Shown here one piece after another: positions 6,595-64,000 of a stretch of DNA of 64,000 nucleotides. Each line of letters opens with the position of its first letter. Position 1 is the stretch's first letter. The notes under the pieces are model-generated. The model ran no database searches, had not been told where the DNA came from, and saw nothing but the letters and a program-made list of their open reading frames with translations. The stretch spans positions 4,988 through 68,987 of the forward strand of contig CAVUAC010000088.1 in NCBI GenBank assembly GCA_963739335.1. Direction: 5' to 3'. This DNA comes from an uncultured Bacteroidota bacterium. GTDB taxonomy: Bacteria; Bacteroidota; Ignavibacteria; UBA10030. Position numbers and translations under genes: made by a program.

Positions 6595-8093
6595 TTCATC
6601 ACCCTGTAAAGTGTGTAGTATGTCAGCTCAGGCTTTGTTAGCCCAAGTCCGGAGAACGTTCGCGTCATCACAGGTTTGAGGTTCTCCGATGTCAATCGCT
6701 CGGGAGTTGGCGAACGGTCGACGATGTAGTCAGGATGAAGCACCTTTTCATATTTCTTCCGTGCCATCGCATCATCATAACTCATCCCTTGAAAGGCTTC
6801 TTTGATCTCGGGGGTCACCAGCCCGCCGGTGTCGTAGATCGTTTTCTCCGACACGTACCCAATGATGCCAATATCGGGCGTCAACACCGTGGCTCCAGCG
6901 GGTGAATTCGATCGCAGCCAGTACGCAATGGGCTTCAGGCACTCATTCATGCCGAGCTCAACGTTCTCCATGTGCGGGAGAACCCATATGTGGTACAGAT
7001 ACTGGTTCTGTGCGAGCGACAAGCCCGCGACAATCAGGAGAATGAAAAAACCACGCCGAGGTGTGATCACCGACGCCACCTCGAGCCGCTTGATACTCCA
7101 GGCCCCATACACGACCACGACTGGCAGTACCAGCAATACGAATCTCGATGCGACCTGGACACTCATCAGCGCCGAGAAAAGAAGGAACGCGAGAAGCCAC
7201 AGAAGCGGGAATCCTTCTTCCTTCACGATCCTCCATCCAAACTTCTTGACTGTAACAATCGTGCCAACAATCAGGCACATGACCGGAAGCAACTGGGTCG
7301 AGCCGATGATCTTGAGGTTTGACAACGTCGTTTCCCAGAACACGGCAAGGGAAAAACCAGCGCCGGTATGGGCTTGGAGAACGTTCGGGATGATCGTCCC
7401 GAACTGCACATATGCGAAAACAAGCCACGACCCAAGCACAAGACCATAGAGAACGACTGAGCCGGCGATTGTCCTCCAAAGAACCGTCCGATGTCGTGCA
7501 TTGAGGATGGCATCGACGAGTCCTGCTACAAAAAGGAGAACACCCTCGGGCCGGACGAGCGTCAAGAGGCCGGCGACCAGCGCAGCAGTGAGGTACTCTT
7601 TCCGGTATGCATACCACAGCGTCAACATCGCGAGAAGAAGGGCCAGGGAAACCTCCATCCCAGAACCCGACCACCGCAGAAAAAAGGCATCGAACGAAAA
7701 CATCCAGGCCGCCACGATCGCATAGAGGCGATCACGGATGACCACAAAAGCAAAGGCAAGTACCGCTATGAGCGACAAGCTCGCGAAAACAATGTCGAGG
7801 GTTTTTGCTACAATGTATGGATCGAGGCTCAGCTTCGTACCGGCCGCAATGAGAAACCCCCAGAGGGGGCCCGTCATGCCGTAACTCGGTGTGCCAGCAT
7901 TGAAGGAGATCCCTTCTCCCCGAGCGATGTTTCTCCCATATTGAAGATAGATATAGGTGTCGTCCGGCGTGTAGTGGAAGTGAAGGCTCGCCGTAACGTA
8001 GAACACGACGACGATCACACCAATGCCATACTGCAACACCAACCTCCACCAAAACAGCCGGCGTTGCAGCTGCCGCTCCTGATCTTCAGTCAA
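6591..8093 (-). CDS. GT-C fold (ArnT/PMT-like) membrane glycosyltransferase
   Basis: DDTYIYLQYGRNIA after first TM, SGME, RPEG, many TM helices. Confidence 0.75.
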   Translation of the reverse strand: MTEDQERQLQRRLFWWRLVLQYGIGVIVVVFYVTASLHFHYTPDDTYIYLQYGRNIARGEGISFNAGTPSYGMTGPLWGFLIAAGTKLSLDPYIVAKTLDIVFASLSLIAVLAFAFVVIRDRLYAIVAAWMFSFDAFFLRWSGSGMEVSLALLLAMLTLWYAYRKEYLTAALVAGLLTLVRPEGVLLFVAGLVDAILNARHRTVLWRTIAGSVVLYGLVLGSWLVFAYVQFGTIIPNVLQAHTGAGFSLAVFWETTLSNLKIIGSTQLLPVMCLIVGTIVTVKKFGWRIVKEEGFPLLWLLAFLLFSALMSVQVASRFVLLVLPVVVVYGAWSIKRLEVASVITPRRGFFILLIVAGLSLAQNQYLYHIWVLPHMENVELGMNECLKPIAYWLRSNSPAGATVLTPDIGIIGYVSEKTIYDTGGLVTPEIKEAFQGMSYDDAMARKKYEKVLHPDYIVDRSPTPERLTSENLKPVMTRTFSGLGLTKPELTYYTLYRVMK

Positions 8094-8748
8094 ACTGCCT
8101 CCTCAACCACACGAAGAATTCATCAACATTATGGAAGACAAAGTCTGTTTTCATCCGGAGGACCTTCTTTTTCGCGTAGGAATCCCACAACACGGCGGCA
8201 ATCCTGATACCCGCTTCGAGCGAGGCCTTTACATCTCCAACCGAGTCCCCAACCATCAGCACTTCGCGTTTTCGCACGGAGAAGTACTTCATGATTTTCA
8301 GAATGCCCTCGGCCGATGGCTTGTAGTTCTCGACGTCATTGCCTGTGACAACAAACTCGAAGTACGGCATCAAGCCAAACGACTGCATGGTAATTGTCGT
8401 GGTGCAAATACCTTTGCCAGTGAAGACTGCAAGATGGATGCCGCGACGCTTCAAATACTTGAGCACACCCAGAATACCGGGGTAGAGTTGGGCCAAGTCC
8501 TTGTGATGGGCACGATAGTATTTGAGATACTCCCGCATGGCACCTTCGAGCTTTTCCTCGCCGACGATCTCGGCCAGAGCCCCCTCTTCCGGCGGGCCGA
8601 ACATCGCGGTGATTTCCTCATCCGTATAGGATCTTCCCTCGTACTTCGCCGCGATGTGATTGAATGAATCAAAGATCAGCTGGTTCGTCTTCGTAAGGGT
8701 GCCATCCATGTCGAAGATGATGCACTTCAACTTGCTCTTTTTCGCCAT
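8086..8748 (-). CDS. HAD-superfamily phosphatase (PpaX/Gph-like)
   Basis: IFDMDGTL, FTGK, KP, MVGDS..D. Confidence 0.88.
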   Translation of the reverse strand: MAKKSKLKCIIFDMDGTLTKTNQLIFDSFNHIAAKYEGRSYTDEEITAMFGPPEEGALAEIVGEEKLEGAMREYLKYYRAHHKDLAQLYPGILGVLKYLKRRGIHLAVFTGKGICTTTITMQSFGLMPYFEFVVTGNDVENYKPSAEGILKIMKYFSVRKREVLMVGDSVGDVKASLEAGIRIAAVLWDSYAKKKVLRMKTDFVFHNVDEFFVWLRRQFD

Positions 8749-8939
8749 TCCTACTTCCCTACGGCATGAGAGTGGAAATGAGATTGCGCTGGCTGAAGAA
8801 CCCGGCCGAAGAACTATGAAAATGCGAAAGGCGCCAAGCACGACTCCGTATGAATTCCCAACGGAGGGATTGACGCCTCGCGATTTCGGTCCAGCGTGAT
8901 GCCTTCACTCCCGTGAAGAAACCTGGCGAGAAGAACCCG

Positions 8940-9989
8940 TCAAGCGATCGTCACGTCCTTGGAGAGATAGACATCCTGTATCGCGTTCAGGATCTGCACT
9001 CCGTCGTGCATGGGCTTCTGGAAGGCCTTGCGACCGCTGATGAGCCCCATGCCCCCCGCACGCTTGTTGATCACCGCAGTCTTCACCGCCTCTGCGATGT
9101 CATTTGCACCTGATGGACCTCCGGAGTTGATCAAGCCAATCCTGCCCATGTAGCAATTCGCAACCTGATAACGTATCAGATCAATCGGATGATCGCTCGT
9201 CAGCTGTTCGTACACCTTCTTGTGCGTCTTTCCGAAATTCAGGGCGGTGTATCCGCCATTGTTTTCAGGCATCTTCTGTTTGATGATGTCCGCCTCGATC
9301 GTCACCCCCAGGTGGTTCGCCTGGCCGGTGAGATCGGCAGAAACGTGATAGTCTTTCTCCTTGGTCTTGAACGCCGCGTTGCGAGTGTAGCACCACAGGA
9401 TCGTTGCCAAGCCGAGCTCATGAGCCTGTTGAAATGCCTGACTGACCTCCCAGATCTGGCGGCGGGATTCCGGGGAACCGAAGTACACGGTCGCCCCAAC
9501 GGCCGTCGCCCCCATATCGAACGCCTGCTTGACGCTGGCAAACATCGATTGATCGTACGTGTTCGGATACGAGAGAAACTCATTGTGATTGAACTTCAGG
9601 ATGAACGGTATTCTGTGCGCATATTTTCTTGCGACGGAACCGAGCACACCGAGCGTCGATGCCACTGCATTGCAGCCCCCTTCGAGGGCCAGCTTCACAA
9701 TGTTCTCGGGATCGAAATACTCAGGATTTGGAGCGAACGACGCTCCAGCAGAGTGTTCTATTCCCTGGTCGACCGGCAAGATTGACACGTAGCCGGTTCC
9801 TGCGAGACGACCATGATTGAACAGCGCCTGCATGCTTCGAAGAACCTGCGGTGTCCGGTCAGACTGCACAAACGTGCGATCGACGAAGTCCGGACCAGGC
9901 AGGTGCAGCGACTCCTTCGGAATCGTCTTGCACCGATGTTCGAGCAGACTCTTCGCTTCGTTTCCAAGCAACTCTTGTATAATGATCAC
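8940..9989 (-). CDS. fbaB: Class I fructose-bisphosphate aldolase
   Basis: [38 protein letters not shown]; GTG start inferred from GGGAG RBS. Confidence 0.95.
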
Positions 9990-10178: not shown

Positions 10179-11348
10179 GTGAAAAAGCAAATCATCCTGC
10201 GGAAAAATGAAGAACATCGGATCCTTGCCGGACACCAGTGGGTTTTCAGCAACGAAATCAAAGCCATTCATGGAAGCCCGGAGGGGGGCGATGTCATTGA
10301 ACTTCTCCGTCACGATGAGAAGCTGCTGGGAGTTGGGTTCTACAATCCCCACTCATTGATTGCGTTCCGCCTCCTCAGTCGTGAGCTGGAAACCGTCACC
10401 TTTGAGTTTTTTGAACGCCGCATCGCGCAAGCACTCCGGCTTCGTCAGCGCCTCTACCGGGGGGCTGAGACATTCCGACTCGTTCACGGAGAGGCCGATT
10501 TTCTCCCTGGACTGATCATCGACAAGTATAACGAATTTCTATCGATCCAAACTCTCGCGGTTGGGATGGACCGCCGACTCACACTCATCTGTGACGTCCT
10601 GGAATCGATCTTCCACCCGAAGGCCATCATCGAGCGAAATGAGTCTCCACTTCGATCGCTGGAACAGCTTCCGCTGAAGAAAGGGGTGCTTCGTGGCACG
10701 CTCGGACAAACCATCATCTCGGAATTCGGCGTGAAGTTCAAGGTCGCTCTGCTCGAGGGACAGAAAACCGGTTTCTTCCTCGATCAGCGTGAAAACCGGC
10801 TCGCCGTGCAACGGTATGTCAACAAGGCATCTGTACTGGATTGTTTCTGCAACGAGGGTGGCTTCGCTATCTACGCCGCGCGTGCCGGTGCTGCGCGGGT
10901 GCACGGCATCGACATCTCTGAGGTCGCCCTTGCCAATGCCAAGGTGAACGCCTTGATCAATGAAGTCCCCGATATCACGTTTGAAGTGGGTGATGTATTC
11001 GAGAAGCTTCCCGCTCTGTACCAGGCCGGCCAGCGGTTTGACGTCGTGATTCTGGATCCTCCCTCCTTCAGCAGGAACAAAAAGACGGTCGCAACTGCTT
11101 TGAAGGGATACAAGGAGATCAATGCCGGAGCGGCGCGGTTGATCCAGACGGGGGGTATCCTCGTGACCGCCTCGTGCTCGCATCACGTCACGGCGGAGTC
11201 ATTCCTCGGGGCAATCGAAGGGGGCGCGCGGGCAGCCCATCGATCCTTACAGTTGCTGGAATGGCGAGGAGCTGCGGCGGATCATCCCACACTTCCGGCA
11301 ATGCCGGAAACGGCATACTTGAAGTTCGGCATCTTCGTCGTCCAATGA
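10179..11348 (+). CDS. rlmI: RlmI-like 23S rRNA m5C methyltransferase (PUA + SAM domains)
   Basis: GH.WVFSNEI, GQKTGFFLDQRENR, ILDPPSF, SCS, DHP..PET.YLK. Confidence 0.85.
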   Translation: MKKQIILRKNEEHRILAGHQWVFSNEIKAIHGSPEGGDVIELLRHDEKLLGVGFYNPHSLIAFRLLSRELETVTFEFFERRIAQALRLRQRLYRGAETFRLVHGEADFLPGLIIDKYNEFLSIQTLAVGMDRRLTLICDVLESIFHPKAIIERNESPLRSLEQLPLKKGVLRGTLGQTIISEFGVKFKVALLEGQKTGFFLDQRENRLAVQRYVNKASVLDCFCNEGGFAIYAARAGAARVHGIDISEVALANAKVNALINEVPDITFEVGDVFEKLPALYQAGQRFDVVILDPPSFSRNKKTVATALKGYKEINAGAARLIQTGGILVTASCSHHVTAESFLGAIEGGARAAHRSLQLLEWRGAAADHPTLPAMPETAYLKFGIFVVQ

Positions 11349-21396: not shown

Positions 21397-24300
21397 CTAC
21401 CTCGCTCTGTATGTGAGATGTTGAAACGTTTGGCTTATCGGGTTGAGCTCAAAATCGAAAAGGACACCCAGATAGAATCTCCATTCTTTTCCGTACATCA
21501 CATCCTGAGACCTGAACGTTCGAGTGAATCGGTCGAACCCGTATGCGCCCGAGAAGAAAATTCGCGTCGGGTATTGATAGAACGAGAACGCCTCGAGGCG
21601 CAGTTCGAATCCTGCATCCCGCTTCCAATCGCTGACGGACGGCGCGGGTCCAGTCCACGAATCCCCCATATCCGCAAACACCGATCCGTACAGCTTTGTG
21701 AAGTAGAACTGCAGGAATCGGAAATTGAGCGTCGTCCAAAGAGGAAAACGATAGGTCGCTCCAACGACGCCAATGTCGTTTCCCCCGAGGCCGTAGAATT
21801 GATATCCACGCATACCGGTGAACCCGCCGGCATAGGAGTCGAAGAAATCATCGACGCGCTTGCCGAGCGTGCTCGCCCCGTGCACGGAGAACGTCAAAGT
21901 GTGCTTCGGCATTGGAAGCGCCAGATGCTCGTTCCACGAGACCTCAACGCGATGGAAGCTGGGACGAAGGTAGATTGGCACCCGCATTCCATTCTTGTAC
22001 TCCGCTGAGTCAGTGGGGTTGTACTTGTCAAATTCATAGTTGTATCTCAGGGTAATCGTCCTTCCCACTGGACTAATGTCACGATCAACCGAAGGAACGA
22101 TACCATTATACGTCACCTGTGCCGAGAGCATGTTGCCAATGAGATAGAGGTAACCGGAAGCAGGAACGACATATCCATGCAGAGAATCCGTATTCACAAC
22201 GAAACTACCAAGATCCGCGTTGTACCGACTCAAAGAGTAACCAATCTTGAGCTGAGTGTAGTCATTCAGAATGTTCTGGCGAAGACTGGCATCAAACTCA
22301 AAAAGACTATAGGTAACCTCCGTCGCATACTGGCGCTCACGATCGGTAACCAAGGAGAACGACACGTCAGTCTTGCGCGAGATATTGTAGAGTTCAAGCG
22401 AAAGTGTGGGTGAAAGACCAAACTGATAGAAAATGGGAATCGGACCGCGGTATTCGAAAATCCCAAAAATGTCTCTCTCCAGTTGCCGGTTGATCACGGC
22501 CCCACCGAACAGAGAGAATCTGTCCAGCACTTCGTTCGACGAAAAGTAGAATCCCGGACGAACAATGTCAATGCCCTTGTTCCGTGGATTGTAGTTGTCG
22601 ACACGCACGACAGGGACGAGCGACAGACTCGTATATGTGTTCCGGTACGGCTTCGGGTCCGATAGATTTTGGCCACTGGCCGGTGTGTTCAAAGATGCGG
22701 CGGTCGTTGCTTCCGTCGCAGGAGTCGTCACGGATACAATGCTGCCGTTGACGCGGTCAAGTTTCTTCGTAATCCATTCGGGCGTCTCCAATTTCTCCAT
22801 GAGGGCCAAGGCTTTCGGCCCCTTCAAGTAGGCGATCTTGTATCCCGTCGAGGCGTACAACACGAACGCGAGATCTCCTTGCTCACTCACAGCCGGAAGA
22901 AAAGCGCCGCCAAGCACATTGGTGAGTTGATCCTTCGTCCCGGTCTGGAGATTCAAAGTGAAAATGTTGAAGATGCCCCCTTCAGCCGCTGTATAAATCA
23001 GAGAACCTCCGTCGGGTGAGAACACGGGATTCCTTGCATCGACCCCCCGGACGACCACCTTGAAATCAGTGCCGTCCTCATTGACAATTGCTACAGACTG
23101 TTTGTCGTCCGCTGAGTAGCCGAAGGCGATCCGCTTGCCGTCGGGAGACCATTGAGGCGTATAGACCTGCTCGCCATTCGTGAATTTCGTCACCTGACGG
23201 ACGTTCTTGCCATCTGCGTCACAGATACCGATGTTGACGGTGCCGTCACTTCCATAAGCAAAGACGAGCTTCGTCCCGTCAGACGAGAGCTTGGGATTCC
23301 ATCCGCGCAGCCCGTGCGTGAGCCGCTCTTCTCTTTCGTTCGCCACATCGTATCGATACAGGTCGTAGAGCTTTGCCCAGAATCCATTTTTGCGGCTGAT
23401 TTTCGAGTAGTAAAGATATTTCCCGTCCGGCGAGAACGAGAGGGTCGATCGCACGCGCACATCGAGCTTTGATGCAGTCTTTGTTTGAAGATCATAGAGG
23501 TACACGGAGCTCTGGCCGAAATAGTCCTGGCCTTTGTTCGACACGTACGCGATTTTCTTGCCATCCGGTGAAAACGTCGGATAGAAATTGCCGAATCCCT
23601 CCTTCTCGATAAGTTCTCCCTCAGTCCTTTGTGCGGCGATTGCGGCCCCTACTCTTTGATACTGTTCTTTCTTCGCCTCCTTCCACTGCTGGTACAATGC
23701 TTCTCCCGAGATGCCCAGGATAGCCGAAATTGCACCATCGATTGTCACGCGCGGCACGTTGCTGAGTGCTCGCGAAATCTCTTTTAGCTTCTCTGCCCCG
23801 TACTTCTCCGCGATATAGGATACGATGGAGAATCCGGCATTGTAGGAGGACTCATTCCCGAGGCTTGTTTTCCCGAAGACCGCCATCTCCTCCCAGGAGA
23901 GCGGATTTCCTTCGAGCATGTACATCCGCAAGATCATGTCCCGATGAGAATCCCAGTAGTCGTAGGTGAACGTCGGATGATTGTATTGCGCGACGCCTTC
24001 CGCGAACCAAGTTGGCACGACAAACGCCGAGAGAGGATACGAGACGATGACATTGGGATAACCGTAGAGCACGTCAGTCCGGCGCTCAGCTTCGTACCCC
24101 AACCACTGGAGATACACAGCTGGGAATGTCCGGCCTAATTTCATCGCGGTCTGAATCTGCACGATATGCGTGAATTCATGAGACACGACGTCCTTCAGCC
24201 AGGGATGCGTTCCGCGGAGCTCGAAGTCAAGCGCGGGAGCCCAGAGCTCGATTTTGTTATCATAGAAATATGCGGCCCCGTTCGAGTAGTCATCGTGGTC

Positions 24301-59314: not shown

Positions 59315-59950
59315 TCATTTCAGCAGCAGCATCCGTTTGTGCGCAACCTGCTTCACGCCGTGCTCGTCCGTGGCAATCAGCTGATAGACATAAACGCCGC
59401 TCGCACACCGCGTCGCATCCCACACTTCTTGATGATAGCCTGCGAGCCGATCTCCATCTACTACCGAAGCCACCTCTTGACCTAGCAAATTGAATATCTT
59501 CAAGCTCACCTGGCTGTTGGCTGTCAACTGATAGCTGATCGTCGTCGCAGGATTGAACGGGTTAGGATAGTTCTGATACACCTCAAACTTCTCCGGTGCA
59601 GCAACGGCAACCGTGATCTCTTTCGAGCAGGACTCGCCTGTAGCGCCGGAGATGACAAACTTCAGCGTCTGGCTCTTCTTCACCGGAGCCGTCTTATCGA
59701 CCGAGAACGTGAACGTCGCAGGCTGCTCTTGCTGTGACTTGATCAGCGCAATGCGTTGCTCTGTCACAGCAAACTTCAGCCACGAGGGCAGGTTGGTCAC
59801 TTCCACCTTAACGCTTGCTATCGGGATTGTTGCCGTGTTTGCCACCGCAAGCTCGATCGTGTTGCCCGACGATGCAAACGGAAGCTGATAAACTGTTTGC
59901 CCCACGGCGACCGCGGCGCTTATCATCATCAATGCAACGAGTGTTCTCAT
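59315..59950 (-). CDS. Small T9SS cargo: signal peptide + one Ig-like domain + type A CTD
   Basis: QNYPNPFNPATTI.Y.L..LKIFNLLGQEV..SGVYVY..KRMLLLK; GGGAG RBS before ATG 59950. Confidence 0.88.
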   Translation of the reverse strand: MRTLVALMMISAAVAVGQTVYQLPFASSGNTIELAVANTATIPIASVKVEVTNLPSWLKFAVTEQRIALIKSQQEQPATFTFSVDKTAPVKKSQTLKFVISGATGESCSKEITVAVAAPEKFEVYQNYPNPFNPATTISYQLTANSQVSLKIFNLLGQEVASVVDGDRLAGYHQEVWDATRCASGVYVYQLIATDEHGVKQVAHKRMLLLK

Positions 59951-59962
59951 TGCGCGACTCCC

Positions 59963-60305
59963 TTCATGATTCGAAATTCCTTGTTCAATATTGGACATTC
60001 ACACCTGACGGATAAACTCCTCGCACCAAAAAGAGAGCAAGACACCCTGAGCGCCTGCCCGCCTTAGTAGTTCTTCCAACGCAGGCGGGGAACTCCAGCG
60101 CTCCCTTTGCGCGCAGTCGAAGGGTGCTATGAGCCCTCTCGGCTGGCTAAGTTCCGTCTCCGCCTCCGCCTTTTGTCTGCAAGCTGCAATCTGCAATCTG
60201 CCCCCTGTGTTCCTCTCCCCGTCTTCCATCTACCGTCTTACGTTTTTCTTCTCCCCTCTTCCATTTCCCATCTTCCATCTACCGTCTTCCGTCTCACGTC
60301 TAACT
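59963..60305. repeat. Intergenic cluster of degenerate heptamer tandem repeats and nested palindromic elements
   Basis: TTC-N4-type units 59963-60000, CTGCAA(G/T) x3 60177-60197, TCT-N4-type x8 60250-60305, CACCCT..AGGGTG 60043-60126. Confidence 0.8.
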
Positions 60306-60309
60306 CTCT

Positions 60310-62781
60310 TTACTGCACACTGAACTCCACCAGCGCATTCGTGCCAATGTTCTGCACCTTATCCTGCTGCGTCGTGCCCAGGTTCATCCTAAACGTCATA
60401 TTCGCCGGCAGCAGCTCCTTCGTCACCTCACCATTCGTCGTTGTGCCGATCTGTCGCCACGACGAGAAATAGTAGCTTATCAGTGCACCATCAACCGGCT
60501 GGCTCTGCGAGTTTCTCACCCTCACTGTGCACAACACCGTTGTGAAATCAACCGTGCTGTTCGTCGAGATATCCTGCACCTTATCGTTCGTGACGGTCTC
60601 GTAGCTCATCCTGAATGTGTAACTACCCGGCAACAGTTCTATCGCCGCAACCCCGTTTGTCGTTGCTCCAAGACTCTTCCAGGAGCTAAAGTAATACTGC
60701 ACCGTTCCCTGGTCGATGAATGCTCCCAAGCTGTTCTTCAACTGCACAATTGCATTCACCGTGTTAAACACAACGGTGGGATTCGTGCCAACGTTTTGCT
60801 GCTTATCCTTAGTGGCAGATGCGTATGACATCCTGAATGTGTAGTTGGCAGGGAGCAGCTCTTTTGTCGCCACACCGTTCGTGGTCGTTCCAAAGTTCTG
60901 CCATGAGCTAAAGTAGTACTGCACCGTCCCAGTGTCTATCAATGCACCCTGACTGTTCTGGAGCTGGACCGCAGCATTGACGGTCTGGAAGGCCACAGTT
61001 GGATTGCTGCCTATGTTCTGCTGCTTGTCATTGGTTGCAGAAGCATATGCCATTCTGAACGTATAGTTGCCCGGCAGCAGCTCTTTCGTTGCCACGCCAT
61101 TCGTGGTTGTTCCAAGGCTTTGCCAGGAGCTGAAGTAGTACTGGACAGTTCCCTGGTCAATGAACTCACCCAAGCTGTTCTTCAACTGCACCGTTGCATT
61201 CACCGTTGTAAACACAACCGTTGGATTTGTGCCTATGTTCTGCTGCTTATCGTTTGTTGCAGAAGCATACGTCATCCTAAATGTGTAATTGCCCGGCAGC
61301 AGCTCTTTCGACGCTACGCCGTTTGAGGTTGTCCCGAGATTCTGCCAGGAACTGAAGTAATACTGGACGCTCCCTTGATCGATGAAATCCCCCTGACTGT
61401 TCTTCAACTGCACGGCGGCATTCACTGTCGTGAACACAACCGTGGGATCTACACCTATGTCCTGCTGCTTATCATTTGTGGCAGCTGCGTATATCATTCT
61501 GAAAGTATAGTTCCCAGGCAACAGTTCTTTTGTGGCAACGCCGTTTGTTGTGGCTCCAAAGTCTTTCCACGCGCTGAAGTAGTATTGCACGGTCCCTATG
61601 TCTACGGGGCTACCCGCACTGTTTTGCAGCTTCACCAGTGTGTTGATTGTTTGAAACACTACCGGCTCCGTTCCGACGGTCACATTTGATTTCGTCTGTG
61701 AGCCCCCTTCGTATGTCATTCGCAGGCTCAACGTCTGGAGGCTGGTCGCGATGCTGAACGTGCCGTCGTTGTTGTTCACGGCGTCCTTCCAGCTACTATC
61801 ATAGTATTGCAGCGCGCCGCCGGTGAGGTTGATCCCAGCGCTGTTGATGAGCTTGACAACTAGACCGGGCGGTGGCGCAACCGGCAATTGTCCTAACAAA
61901 TACTCCGTGTTGTAGCGGATGAGGGCATAGGCTTCAGTTGTCAGATTGCTTGTGCTGTCGACATTGACATCTTGCAGGACCGTCTGGAGTGTGGCTCGTG
62001 CACCCGCAGTATTGTTCACTTGTAGTTGTGACTTCGCTGATGCGAAGTAGCCGATATACTTGTTTGCAACAACCTGCATTGTGATCCAAGCCTGCGAACC
62101 GGATTCGGTAACGTACAACAGCAAGCTGTCAAGCCAATCGGAAGCATTAAAACTCATCGGCGGTGCTGCTGGGCCAACGGTCCAGCCAGAGAATTTCACA
62201 GCATTTTGAATTGAATCGGTATTGGGTATATCATCCTCGTTCGGGAATCGTTCTTCCGAGAACAGGCTGTCAAAATCAAAAAATGGCGACACAACGCAGC
62301 GCCGGATTGCAGGTAGACCCTTGCTCATCATTTCATATACTTTTGAACTTTTCCCCGGATGAATCGCGTCATCACCTACTCCGCCAAAACAAGCTGTCAG
62401 ATCATATGAAAGATCCGCTGTCCATGTTCGGCCAGGTGTCTTCAAGAAGCCCACAGGCACAATTCTTCCTTTCAGTTGCGGAAAAGTCCGTCTGAAGCTT
62501 GCTTCCGTATAGCCATTATTGATGAACCTCAAACCAACTGTATCGATGTCAAGACTTGCCGACTGTTTTGATATATCTATTGCTAATTCGGCTATGCTGC
62601 CTGTATTTGCAGCATCATTTGTTAACGTGTAAGTATAGTAGAACATCTTCTCATCGGTATTGTACATGATACTCGAATGGATTCGAACGGCAAGTAGGCT
62701 TGGGTATTGCAGGTTTTGCGCGAAGGCAAATGCTATCAATACCAGATCCAAAAGCACAGCAACAACGACTTTTTTCTTCAT
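60310..62781 (-). CDS. Secreted protein: N-terminal beta domain, helical (FIMAH-like) segment, 7 tandem ~74-aa repeats
   Basis: Signal peptide MKKKVVVAV..AFA; helical W.T..LTTEAYALIRYNTEYLL segment; repeats QYYFSSW..ELLPGNYTFRM.Y. Confidence 0.85.
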   Translation of the reverse strand: MKKKVVVAVLLDLVLIAFAFAQNLQYPSLLAVRIHSSIMYNTDEKMFYYTYTLTNDAANTGSIAELAIDISKQSASLDIDTVGLRFINNGYTEASFRRTFPQLKGRIVPVGFLKTPGRTWTADLSYDLTACFGGVGDDAIHPGKSSKVYEMMSKGLPAIRRCVVSPFFDFDSLFSEERFPNEDDIPNTDSIQNAVKFSGWTVGPAAPPMSFNASDWLDSLLLYVTESGSQAWITMQVVANKYIGYFASAKSQLQVNNTAGARATLQTVLQDVNVDSTSNLTTEAYALIRYNTEYLLGQLPVAPPPGLVVKLINSAGINLTGGALQYYDSSWKDAVNNNDGTFSIATSLQTLSLRMTYEGGSQTKSNVTVGTEPVVFQTINTLVKLQNSAGSPVDIGTVQYYFSAWKDFGATTNGVATKELLPGNYTFRMIYAAATNDKQQDIGVDPTVVFTTVNAAVQLKNSQGDFIDQGSVQYYFSSWQNLGTTSNGVASKELLPGNYTFRMTYASATNDKQQNIGTNPTVVFTTVNATVQLKNSLGEFIDQGTVQYYFSSWQSLGTTTNGVATKELLPGNYTFRMAYASATNDKQQNIGSNPTVAFQTVNAAVQLQNSQGALIDTGTVQYYFSSWQNFGTTTNGVATKELLPANYTFRMSYASATKDKQQNVGTNPTVVFNTVNAIVQLKNSLGAFIDQGTVQYYFSSWKSLGATTNGVAAIELLPGSYTFRMSYETVTNDKVQDISTNSTVDFTTVLCTVRVRNSQSQPVDGALISYYFSSWRQIGTTTNGEVTKELLPANMTFRMNLGTTQQDKVQNIGTNALVEFSVQ
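60313..61863 (-). repeat. Intragenic tandem repeat, 7 units of about 222 bp (74 aa)
   Basis: TVN..VQL.NS.G..ID.G.VQYYFSSW...G.T.NGVA.KELLP..YTFRM.Y...T.DK.Q.IG.NPTV.F; first unit divergent. Confidence 0.92.
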
Positions 62782-62791
62782 GTTGGTTGCC

Positions 62792-64000
62792 TCAACGAAA
62801 TTCATAATGAATTTGTGGACGTTCAGAGTCTCGTCCGCCGTTATGTCTACCCACATAATAGGTCAGCTTAGCCAGTTTCTCTTTATCCATCATGCCGTGA
62901 TTGATGTCGACACTAGTTCCTACTCGATGCAACTTGTGCTCTGGACTTGAACTGTCGAAATCCCAATTTGCTCTAGTGTCAAAATACCCACCGAATTCCA
63001 GACTCATGTCGTTGATACTTGTCTTTATCGTACTAGCCCCTCCATCTTCGGACCTTGTCCATTCATAAAAATCCAGAATAACAAGGTACAGGCTATTCCC
63101 CGTCTCAGCAGTGCACCAGTCATTGTCAGGATGGCGAGACTTTCCGTCTTGACTCTGGACCAATGTGTCTGGCACATCCTGAAGGAAAATGAGATATTTG
63201 AAGTTGACAAGGCCGGGCACCTTCACTTCCATATTCACTGTATCCTTGACCGTGGTGTCGGCCACCAACGATGCTGTCACCAAATATTTGCCCGAAACTT
63301 GAGAAGCGACAAGTGAATCAACAACTGCCATTCCATTTTGGTCGGTCGTAAGCAAGAGAGGATTTCCCTTTGGCTTGCCTTGTCCATAGAAATACCCCTG
63401 TTTCGGTTGAGGAAGTGAAACAGTCCCTAGATCGTGTTGGTGTCCGCCGCTGCGATCTTCAAATGACGTCATGACCCGAACCTGTTCGTCTTTCACAGGC
63501 TGGTTCGACGCATCCAACACCTGGATTCTGAAGCTTCTTTTGGGGTTGTATCCAGGCCTATCCGCGCCTCTGCGCGGTGGCACATATGGCCATGTTGTCC
63601 ACGGAGCATGATCAAGTATCTTGACCACTTTCTTCTTCACCTTCAGCCGCGCAAGACCATAGTGTATGCCACCACTGGGCACACCACCGCCCAGTATCTT
63701 GGCTCGCGGTTGTTTCTGAGCAACGGAACTCACGTTCAATTGCAGTGCTTTCGCTCTCGGTCGCTGTTGCACAGTTGTCTTGTTTCGAGCATCCAGCGAT
63801 CTGATGCTCATCGGCAACTCAAGTGGTTCTTCCGACACGAGTTGAATCAACACCTCGATGGAATCCGGCTCCGTTTCAGGATGGGCATAGTAATTCAAAG
63901 CTGCAAACCACCCATCGATGGACTTATCGACTTGAGTGCTGTCGAGCGTATATAGAAACCCAAAGGTGTCTGACTGCACTATCTCACATTTTCCCCACCA
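62792..64000 (-). CDS. Large protein, partial (frame open to window end): Ig-like (Big-1-like) domain + C-terminal MepA-like zinc peptidase domain
   Basis: Frame open upstream (WWGKCEIVQSD..); SGGHQH, TTDQNG, SG.Y.VTA; NDMSL..GG.FD..HKLHRVGTSVD..QIH. Confidence 0.75.
   Translation of the reverse strand, partial: WWGKCEIVQSDTFGFLYTLDSTQVDKSIDGWFAALNYYAHPETEPDSIEVLIQLVSEEPLELPMSIRSLDARNKTTVQQRPRAKALQLNVSSVAQKQPRAKILGGGVPSGGIHYGLARLKVKKKVVKILDHAPWTTWPYVPPRRGADRPGYNPKRSFRIQVLDASNQPVKDEQVRVMTSFEDRSGGHQHDLGTVSLPQPKQGYFYGQGKPKGNPLLLTTDQNGMAVVDSLVASQVSGKYLVTASLVADTTVKDTVNMEVKVPGLVNFKYLIFLQDVPDTLVQSQDGKSRHPDNDWCTAETGNSLYLVILDFYEWTRSEDGGASTIKTSINDMSLEFGGYFDTRANWDFDSSSPEHKLHRVGTSVDINHGMMDKEKLAKLTYYVGRHNGGRDSERPQIHYEFR

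Follow-up and report, generated by a model that had tools for sequence, protein, structure and literature searches.

A 64,000-nucleotide (nt) window of the genome of an uncultured Ignavibacteria bacterium (G000:C88:4988-68987) carries, at window positions 59315-64000, three co-directional minus-strand open reading frames (ORFs), designated here genes 1, 2, and 3, that on balance probably specify a polymorphic exported peptidoglycan hydrolase and its cognate self-protection partner. The locus displays several hallmarks of conflict systems, namely, cassette swapping, orphan cassettes, an orphan partner, patchy distribution, and effector-partner co-variation, and would represent one of the polymorphic, bacteriocin-like or polymorphic-toxin-like systems of Ignavibacteria. 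Gene 1 would encode a Sec-exported protein whose conserved front carries an exchangeable C-terminal peptidoglycan-hydrolase module, in this case a putative immunoglobulin (Ig)-like domain with an invariant SGGHxH motif and, after it, a zinc peptidase domain distantly related to MepA (M74/LAS). The gene 2 product, encoded on the same message 10 nt downstream and also exported, would accompany it through the Sec pathway to the periplasm, the site of the producer's own wall; its variable N-terminal domain would bind the peptidase domain as the module appears and keep the hydrolase harmless, most likely in an immunity role that shields the producer's cell wall during the enzyme's stay in the periplasm. 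After release, the enzyme could act on the peptidoglycan of other cells, with gene 3 as the conserved third member of the system. What the analysis shows is the gene structure, the homology to the first LAS motif of M74, the conserved synteny, the cassette swapping, the co-variation, and a predicted interface; we infer that the enzyme binds zinc, cleaves peptidoglycan, and is toxic to other bacteria, that gene 2 confers immunity, and how the proteins cross the outer membrane.

An earlier note, made from the letters of the window alone, had described three co-directional genes at this position, and the ORF listing has all three as real open frames on the minus strand. It had called the gene 1 product large, which the 743-amino-acid (aa) protein bears out, with the single correction that its N terminus lies outside the window. 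The spacing of 10 nt that the note had given between the gene 1 stop and the gene 2 start is exact, as the TGA at 62794-62792 is followed, after 10 nt, by the ATG at 62781. All of its suggested computational checks that ran came out favorably, so its interpretation is supported. The features of the triad are as follows.

62792..64000, minus strand: 3' two-thirds of gene 1, cut by the window end (full gene, C88:67779-70010)
L003:4280-6511: full gene 1, 743 aa, which would reach window-equivalent position 65023
63218..63661, minus strand: gene 1 aa 455-602, first half of the C-terminal module, Ig-like, with SGGHxH
62795..63217, minus strand: gene 1 aa 603-743, LAS/M74-like domain at the extreme C terminus
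62782..62791, minus strand: 10-nt spacer, ggcaaccaac, from the gene 1 stop to the gene 2 start
60310-62781, minus strand: gene 2, whole, 823 aa
62092..62781, minus strand: gene 2 signal peptide (aa 1-21) and N-domain (aa 22-~230), the variable half of the swapped cassette
61879..62091, minus strand: gene 2 helical segment (aa ~231-301), FIMAH-homologous
60310..61878, minus strand: seven 74-aa tandem repeats of gene 2 (aa 302-823) and its stop codon
59951..60309, minus strand: gene 2-gene 3 intergenic region with a 14-nt tandem repeat and a terminator-like hairpin
59315..59950, minus strand: gene 3, whole, 211 aa, with the T9SS-type C-terminal domain at about 59357-59569

Cassette swapping can be seen within this genome, which contains a second, paralogous triad outside the window (G000 C51:21147-28154; loci L005-L010). 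In blastn comparisons, the two loci are conserved in the upstream region and signal peptide (86% identity), the center of gene 1 (78%), the helix and repeats of gene 2 (89% over 1760 nt), and gene 3 (90%). Residues 38-225 of gene 1 are unrelated, and the C terminus of gene 1 and the N terminus of gene 2 are replaced together as one block (1556 versus 2430 nt): the C51 copy of gene 1 carries an SLT-like module, and in the C51 copy of gene 2 the N-terminal region is longer and of another kind. Immediately 3' of the triad on that contig, at C51:18739-20904, there are two ORFs that by eye resemble endonuclease/exonuclease/phosphatase-type and patatin-like proteins.

The same comparison yielded the segment boundaries of the gene 1 protein. 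It starts with MSTLPNRLL (MSTLPNRLLTGAIALSILVPSLSVSQ), its N terminus being signal-peptide-like, and continues with QVKIKEKVEI, a variable N-region (aa 38-225), a conserved central region (aa ~194-468) that ends in the junction motif HYGLARLKVKK, and the variable C-terminal module. A search with the whole of gene 1 retrieved a family of 20 proteins, all derived from metagenomes or metagenome-assembled genomes (MAGs) and none of them (0/20) with precomputed Pfam domains. The family front consists of a signal peptide, the sequence Q-V-x-I-K-E-K-V-E-I after the likely cleavage site, the center, and HYGLARLxxKK; past this junction, the C termini are LAS-like in 8 proteins, SLT-like in 11, and of the HExxH type in one. 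The QVKIKEKVEI sequence occurs in this genome twice, in the two gene 1 paralogues. Members of the second C-terminal type carry E-S, YRYEP, and AQTR.ASYGLLQ motifs; Pfam SLT matches were obtained for 4 of the 11 (best E, 0.0049), and the nearest Atlas clusters are all SLT (0.92-0.94). Judging from these matches, this C terminus is probably a lytic transglycosylase; a profile built from it (A3) gave only chance-level matches to Protein Data Bank (PDB) sequences. The third type is found in P0017 (883 aa), which has a zincin-like HEGFH past the HYGLARL junction and no Pfam match. The swapped C-terminal domains for which the earlier note had proposed a survey are thus present both in the 20-protein family and in the genome's own paralogue, each combining a conserved front with an exchangeable C terminus past a junction motif, as is typical of polymorphic toxins.

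In the gene 1 module, all three motifs that had originally drawn attention are located in the 743-aa protein: DMSLEFGGYF at aa 672, HKLHRVGTSVD at aa 696, and QIH as part of the terminal QIHYEFR (aa 737-743). The preceding half of the module (aa 455-602) holds an ILDHAPW...RGADRPGYNPKR stretch and an Ig-like beta-sandwich, with weak Big_1 matches and the invariant SGGHxH (H528, H530). This half is present in 65 of 164 proteins, every one of which also carries the LAS-like half; given that it accompanies the LAS-like domain in most of the longer proteins, the unit can be described as a two-domain module of ~290 aa. A HMMER search with aa 603-743 over 1.84 billion representatives identified 204 sequences at E<=1e-3 and 77 at E<=1e-10, and the domain is terminal, ending no more than 51 residues from the end of the protein in 154 of the 157 locally re-scored rows. 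A 30-row alignment of the module (A1) has as invariant positions G72, G73, H74, and H76, which belong to SGGHxH, as well as H177, W201, N217, D218, G224, G225, F227, H242, H245, R246, S250, and D252; I284, H285, and F288 are nearly invariant. In protein numbering, the conserved residues include H528, H530, H631, D672, H696, H699, D706, and H739, of which H699, D706, and H739 are candidate zinc ligands.

The first LAS motif, H-x(3-6)-D, is represented by H699-x6-D706 within HKLHRVGTSVD; both residues are invariant in A1 (H245, D252), and the motif aligns with MepA. With hhalign, A1 matched E. coli MepA through the segment NDMSLEFGGYFD...HKLHRVGTSVDIN, aligned to the first LAS motif, at a probability of 33% and an E value of 4.6e-4. 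When 145 domain sequences were compared with ~40 MepA sequences, the probability rose to 90.8% (E, 1.2e-6; 33 columns), with a MepA profile that is shallow (>=72% identity) because the homologue search listed close enterobacterial sequences alone. Among 97 homologues scanned, Pfam Peptidase_M74 (PF03411; gathering cut-off, 25 bits) matched 16 at E<=0.05, the best being P0118 (25.7 bits), with P0129 at 24.0 bits, and VanY matched one (E, 0.032); among the A1 members, M74, VanY, and Peptidase_M15_4 had one match each (E, 0.06-0.14). The M74 matches are confined to profile positions about 30-130 at most. The M74 model also matched 5 of 10 sister effectors encoded in the relatives' syntenic loci, 3 of them at the cut-off (L037:549-1418, 27.5 bits; L041, 25.3; L040, 25.3). 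An Atlas feature hit was "Peptidase M15A C-terminal domain-containing" (0.90). Because of the M74 matches, the motif alignment, and the sister proteins, the domain is best read as a divergent M74 relative within the LAS group, a putative distant relative that by the Pfam criterion is not a member, which agrees with the MepA relationship originally proposed.

The second LAS motif, HxH, is replaced by Q737-I738-H739, whose lone His is nearly invariant in A1 (H285). The caution about activity that the earlier note had attached to this QxH was justified, and it is softened by the wider family, since the single-His form is conserved throughout a large subfamily with the tail xIH(Y/F)(G/E)F and the sister subfamily has the canonical H(Y/F)H (DHYHIRVR, RHYHVTVP, NHYHIKMN, GHYHTTFR, and THFHLTFR). 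Extension of the hhalign comparison to the second MepA motif at a low maximum accuracy (MAC) threshold produced no meaningful alignment. A tblastn search with the module against a phage collection found no match, so no link to phage endolysins was seen. This genome contains a single LAS module.

The partner gene follows the module closely in other genomes as well. In a synteny set of 17 relatives' loci, in which ORFs were scored with parts of the three proteins, a partner gene lies directly 3' of the LAS-module gene in 19 of 19 cases; FIMAH is found in 18 of these partners, and the 19th runs off its contig. Of the 11 loci with enough downstream DNA, 9 have a full-length gene 3 homologue (E, 4e-39 to 4e-72), which was not found in the other two, L036 and L039. 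The three-gene order, whose conservation had been proposed as a check, is accordingly conserved in the relatives. The tight spacing of genes 1 and 2 (10 nt in this locus, with overlaps in others) points to co-translation at a fixed ratio.

The effectors and partners vary together. All 9 partners of the effectors with xIH tails match the gene 2 N-domain at E<=4e-26; among the 7 effectors with HxH tails, 5 have partners that match it at E>=3e-5, and the partners of the other 2 do not match. Across 17 pairs, the identities of the effector and partner domains correlate with a Mantel r of 0.78 (none of 5000 permutations was as high), much of which linkage and shared descent alone could explain. For complex prediction, the gene 1 module alignment A1 was paired with the gene 2 partner alignment A2. 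An interface was predicted between the C terminus of gene 1 and the N terminus of gene 2, with ipSAE values of 0.71, 0.84, and 0.78 (median, 0.78) compared with 0.01 for the best of three controls, a partner pLDDT of at least 86, and run-to-run contact agreement of at least 75%. Of 157 solved complexes, 116 attained the score mark used, as did 2 of 215 mismatched pairs; these counts are rough because own alignments were used. The predicted contacts involve, on the module side, residues 189-207 and 260-281, two helices that include the invariant W201/W655, and, on the partner side, residues 43-167 in a numbering that starts at Q22; the predicted interface thus lies entirely inside the two swapped parts. 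Adjacency, co-variation, and predicted binding all identify gene 2 as the cognate gene.

The phyletic distribution of the system is patchy. Gene 1 matches were found in 21 of 61 relatives, in most cases by way of the C-terminal module, which there is joined to other fronts. Any part of gene 1 was matched in 3 of 9 congeners, strongly in one, and in the phylum sample, 21 of 301 genomes had matches: 11, counting G000, belong to the same order, 5 to different orders of the class, and 5 to classes outside it. Some genomes have several copies, such as G060 with 3 and G162 with five matches, two of which span the whole module. There are also orphan module-plus-partner pairs that have no gene 1 front part, in which short modules without signal peptides, each with its own partner, are encoded downstream of full loci (L030 9393-10268 with 10284-11168; L037).

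Stand-alone and rearranged partners were seen as well. The genome G007, of the same genus, encodes a stand-alone partner (L046, G007:C5, 4603-5541, minus strand; 312 aa, 58% identity over the N-domain) between what we take to be a membrane protein gene and a TonB-type receptor gene; no LAS module was detected in this 95% complete genome at E<=0.01. This partner may be an orphan immunity gene. Another variant, L034 (G026:C3:178000-193000), has at positions 6664-9115 one effector gene followed by two tandem partner genes. The first tandem partner terminates in ...YLLAHFGFNGGR (…HFGFNGGR), the final residues of an effector, and P0179 likewise ends in effector-type residues. In the G026 case, the tail sequence suggests a recombination scar at the junction between an effector end and a partner start.

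The partner protein itself has the layout originally described, with a signal-peptide-like start, an N-terminal domain that belongs to no Pfam or NCBIfam family, a helical segment, and seven repeats. The repeats are spaced by exactly 74 aa (TRF period, 222 nt). The helical segment of gene 2 has no Pfam match of its own, and its homologues P0168 (E, 6.1e-11) and P0187 (E, 9.9e-10) match Pfam FIMAH. Partner length in the relatives varies between 265 and 935 aa, which makes the repeats optional in the family. Searches with the N-terminal part gave a family of 61 proteins (181-578 aa searched), mostly ~300 aa long and consisting of a signal peptide, the N-domain, and the FIMAH helix; some of these are source-labeled as Ignavibacteriales or Bacteroidota MAGs. 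Two parts of gene 2, the FIMAH segment and the GWTVGPxAPP region, are kept whatever the cassette type.

Gene 3 had been described as a signal peptide, an Ig domain, and a type IX secretion system (T9SS) C-terminal domain (CTD). The CTD is above both cut-offs (Pfam Por_Secre_tail, 32.4 bits versus 27; TIGR04183, 34.2 bits versus 23), visual inspection of MRTLVALMMISAAVAVGQ indicated a signal peptide, and the Ig-like matches are weak (He_PIG; E, 4.3e-4). The genome encodes a T9SS translocon (SprA_N, 176.7 bits, contig C44) and contains 64 CTD matches, among which there are 2 full-length gene 3 homologues, one per triad locus. With the CTD, the signal peptide, and the machinery in the same genome, gene 3 has the characters of T9SS type A cargo. 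Pfam and NCBIfam scans found no CTD in gene 1 or gene 2, just as had been noted; the presence of the translocon and of a fixed small CTD-containing neighbor suggests a link of the locus to T9SS.

The noncoding parts of the locus show their own conservation. Upstream of gene 1, past the window end, there is a stretch of ~750 nt of noncoding DNA (L003 6512-7268), whose proximal ~320 nt share 86% identity with the stretch upstream of the C51 paralogue, so that a promoter or leader travels with the locus. The spacer between genes 2 and 3, which is 74% identical to the matching C51 spacer, contains a purine-rich 14-nt tandem repeat at 60250-60301 (3.7 copies of GGAAGACGG-like units on the coding strand) and, after it, a terminator-like hairpin. 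When the locus and its 5' region were scanned against Rfam, nothing was returned at E<=0.1, and a sigma-70 and terminator pattern scan of the locus gave no useful excess over shuffles. Among public runs, no RNA run was listed as carrying the locus, and the shares for DNA runs were only 0.06-0.11.

Several observations weigh against an exported hydrolase with an immunity partner. The enzymatic assignment of this particular protein meets a series of negative results: gene 1 stays below the PF03411 cut-off, with no M74 match in the Pfam scan; its C terminus matched nothing in the Pfam and NCBIfam scans; the M74 model found nothing in the six-frame translation of the genome at E<=0.01; its last 196 aa and the A1 profile had only chance-level matches to PDB sequences; and the MepA alignment is restricted to the first LAS motif, the second being QIH and not HxH. 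Neither did the Pfam and NCBIfam scans of gene 1 reveal any recognized toxin-trafficking domain (types V, VI, and VII secretion systems [T5SS, T6SS, T7SS], TANFOR, etc.). A length of 823 aa and seven repeats would be unusual for an immunity protein, and one fold appears to be common to the partners of LAS-type and SLT-type modules, which is atypical of immunity families. The orphan-partner evidence comes from one genome that is 95% complete. The C51 triad has frame breaks in gene 1' (near C51:26925-27133) and gene 2' (near 23063-23217), which reflect either pseudogenes and decay or a MAG assembly error; one or more of the loci may therefore be in decay or wrongly assembled. Finally, the predicted interface consists of two helices, and the candidate catalytic residues are absent from the named contacts; this side of the LAS fold may be the one opposite the zinc site. 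A partner docked there would be more in keeping with an adaptor than with a plug of the active site. The main doubt is therefore whether the partner is an inhibitor, as the interface, the repeats, and the shared fold fit a carrier or scaffold equally.

This doubt leads to the alternative that survives best, namely, that gene 2 is an adaptor or scaffold that grips the back, helical face of the hydrolase and, by way of FIMAH and the repeats, tethers it to the cell surface or to gene 3, the displayed or exported complex then attacking other cells or wall debris. Such a role is possible and, taken as a whole, somewhat unlikely. It would agree with an interface that avoids the candidate catalytic residues, with the retention of the FIMAH segment and GWTVGPxAPP across cassette types, and with a gene 3 whose Ig-like part is triad-specific (the 2 full-length copies among 64 CTD matches) and which is syntenic in 9 of 11 loci, as well as with the T9SS translocon in the genome and the lack of a CTD in both large proteins. 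However, the G007 partner without an effector is hard to explain for a pure adaptor, the orphan module-plus-partner pairs dispense with the gene 1 front, and piggy-back export via T9SS is, to our knowledge, not established.

A related proposal, rather unlikely as it stands, is that gene 3 is a dedicated T9SS carrier that docks onto a conserved portion of the effector-partner complex, itself CTD-less, and exports the folded complex through the T9SS translocon. The contact could be made by the amphipathic N-terminal strand QVKIKEKVEI of gene 1, through strand complementation of the gene 3 Ig-like domain, or else by gene 2, with its FIMAH domain or its repeats. The fixation of one specific small CTD protein as the neighbor makes this trans-carrier hypothesis directly testable. 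If it is true, the triad would be the first case in which polymorphic antibacterial peptidoglycan hydrolases are exported in piggy-back (trans-CTD) fashion.

It is improbable that the triad encodes a housekeeping or nutritional hydrolase, used for remodeling of the cell's own wall or for feeding on necromass, with gene 2 as its regulator or inhibitor and no antagonism involved. MepA serves E. coli as a housekeeping murein endopeptidase, and the relationship to it, like the Sec signals on both large proteins, would be compatible with such a function; Ignavibacteria are, moreover, described as degraders of cell debris. Core wall metabolism, however, would hardly be distributed so patchily even within a genus (3 of 9 congeners, one of them strongly) or be present in several copies, as in G060 and G162, and the LAS/SLT/HExxH swapping, the orphan cassettes, and the strong co-variation are marks of conflict systems. 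Least of all can the module be expected to be an inactive, binding-only one, a peptidoglycan-binding or adhesin tip that lost catalysis with the QIH form: the first His of the LAS HxH is missing across the subfamily and gene 1 scores below the M74 threshold, but that His is not known to be a zinc ligand in LAS enzymes, D672, H696, H699, D706, H739, and SGGHxH are invariant or nearly so in 30 diverse members, most A1 rows have a Glu 4-5 residues ahead of H739 that resembles the ExxH of the M15 family, and the close co-evolution of the partner suggests that there is an activity to be controlled.

The favored combination of a polymorphic hydrolase with a protective partner can be compared with several characterized systems. 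MepA (M74) has the same first catalytic motif, D-x-S/G-x-x-x-GG-x-F ... H-x-x-H-x-x-G-x-x-V-D-I, and is likewise exported with a signal peptide; the M74 cut-off is reached by sister proteins from loci with this gene arrangement, and these have the terminal H(Y/F)H. Unlike MepA, the gene 1 domain of ~140 aa sits at the extreme C terminus of a 743-aa modular protein, lacks the ~85-aa insert between the two MepA motifs, has QIH as its second motif, is always preceded by the Ig-like domain with the invariant SGGHxH, has a dedicated partner that is predicted to bind it, and scores nothing against the M74 model.

Cell-wall enzymes with periplasmic immunity proteins are represented by the T6SS pairs Tae/Tai and Tge/Tgi and by the peptidoglycan-targeting bacteriocin pairs pesticin/Pim and colicin M/Cmi. 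They share with the triad the adjacency of a wall enzyme and an exported, specifically binding protector and the combination of a delivery part with a killing domain; gene 1 differs in having its own Sec signal and no detected T6SS or colicin-type translocation domain, and for gene 2 the immunity role is a proposal. Bdellovibrio secretes a DD-endopeptidase that is accompanied by the ankyrin self-protection protein Bd3460. There, too, a secreted peptidoglycan endopeptidase is encoded beside a protein that binds it and protects the producer, whereas the enzyme is of the PBP4 type, the protector has another fold, and the pair is not polymorphic.

The closest described system found is the TANFOR class of polymorphic toxins of Bacteroidetes, which combine a conserved N-terminal part with exchangeable C-terminal toxins that include peptidoglycan hydrolases (PMC7073777). 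These toxins have no CTD, T9SS-CTD proteins are enriched nearby, and export by T9SS has been hypothesized (Jana, Salomon, and Bosis 2020; PMC7073777). The triad comes from the same phylum and similarly has the cognate gene directly downstream and a CTD-less toxin near T9SS cargo (PMC7073777). The triad is unlike this class in having no TANFOR domain in gene 1 by the Pfam and NCBIfam scans, a much smaller gene 1, a partner that is a large exported modular protein with FIMAH and repeats, and one specific small CTD protein fixed as the third gene. Among open-access papers and bioRxiv preprints on Ignavibacteria, T9SS, and peptidoglycan, or on polymorphic toxins, MepA/LAS, and immunity, no description of this triad was found, nor did a search of the same sources find one of the FIMAH (PF22888) domain. 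A polymorphic effector with a cognate partner is a known kind of system; there is an outside chance of something more unusual, should gene 3 prove to be a secretion carrier.

Ignavibacteria are common in sediments, peat, and bioreactors, and, if the proposed reading holds, this little-studied class would gain a new effector-partner system. Two of its families are unnamed in current libraries, the two-domain SGGHxH and LAS-like module, which has 204 cluster representatives at E<=1e-3, and the partner domain; the HYGLARLxxKK junction marks the point of cassette exchange. The triad also bears on how CTD-less polymorphic toxins leave Bacteroidota cells, a puzzle that is raised for the TANFOR toxins too (PMC7073777). 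For the LAS group, the variant with a single terminal His, combined with an invariant HxH from a neighboring domain, could show a new way of building a catalytic site.

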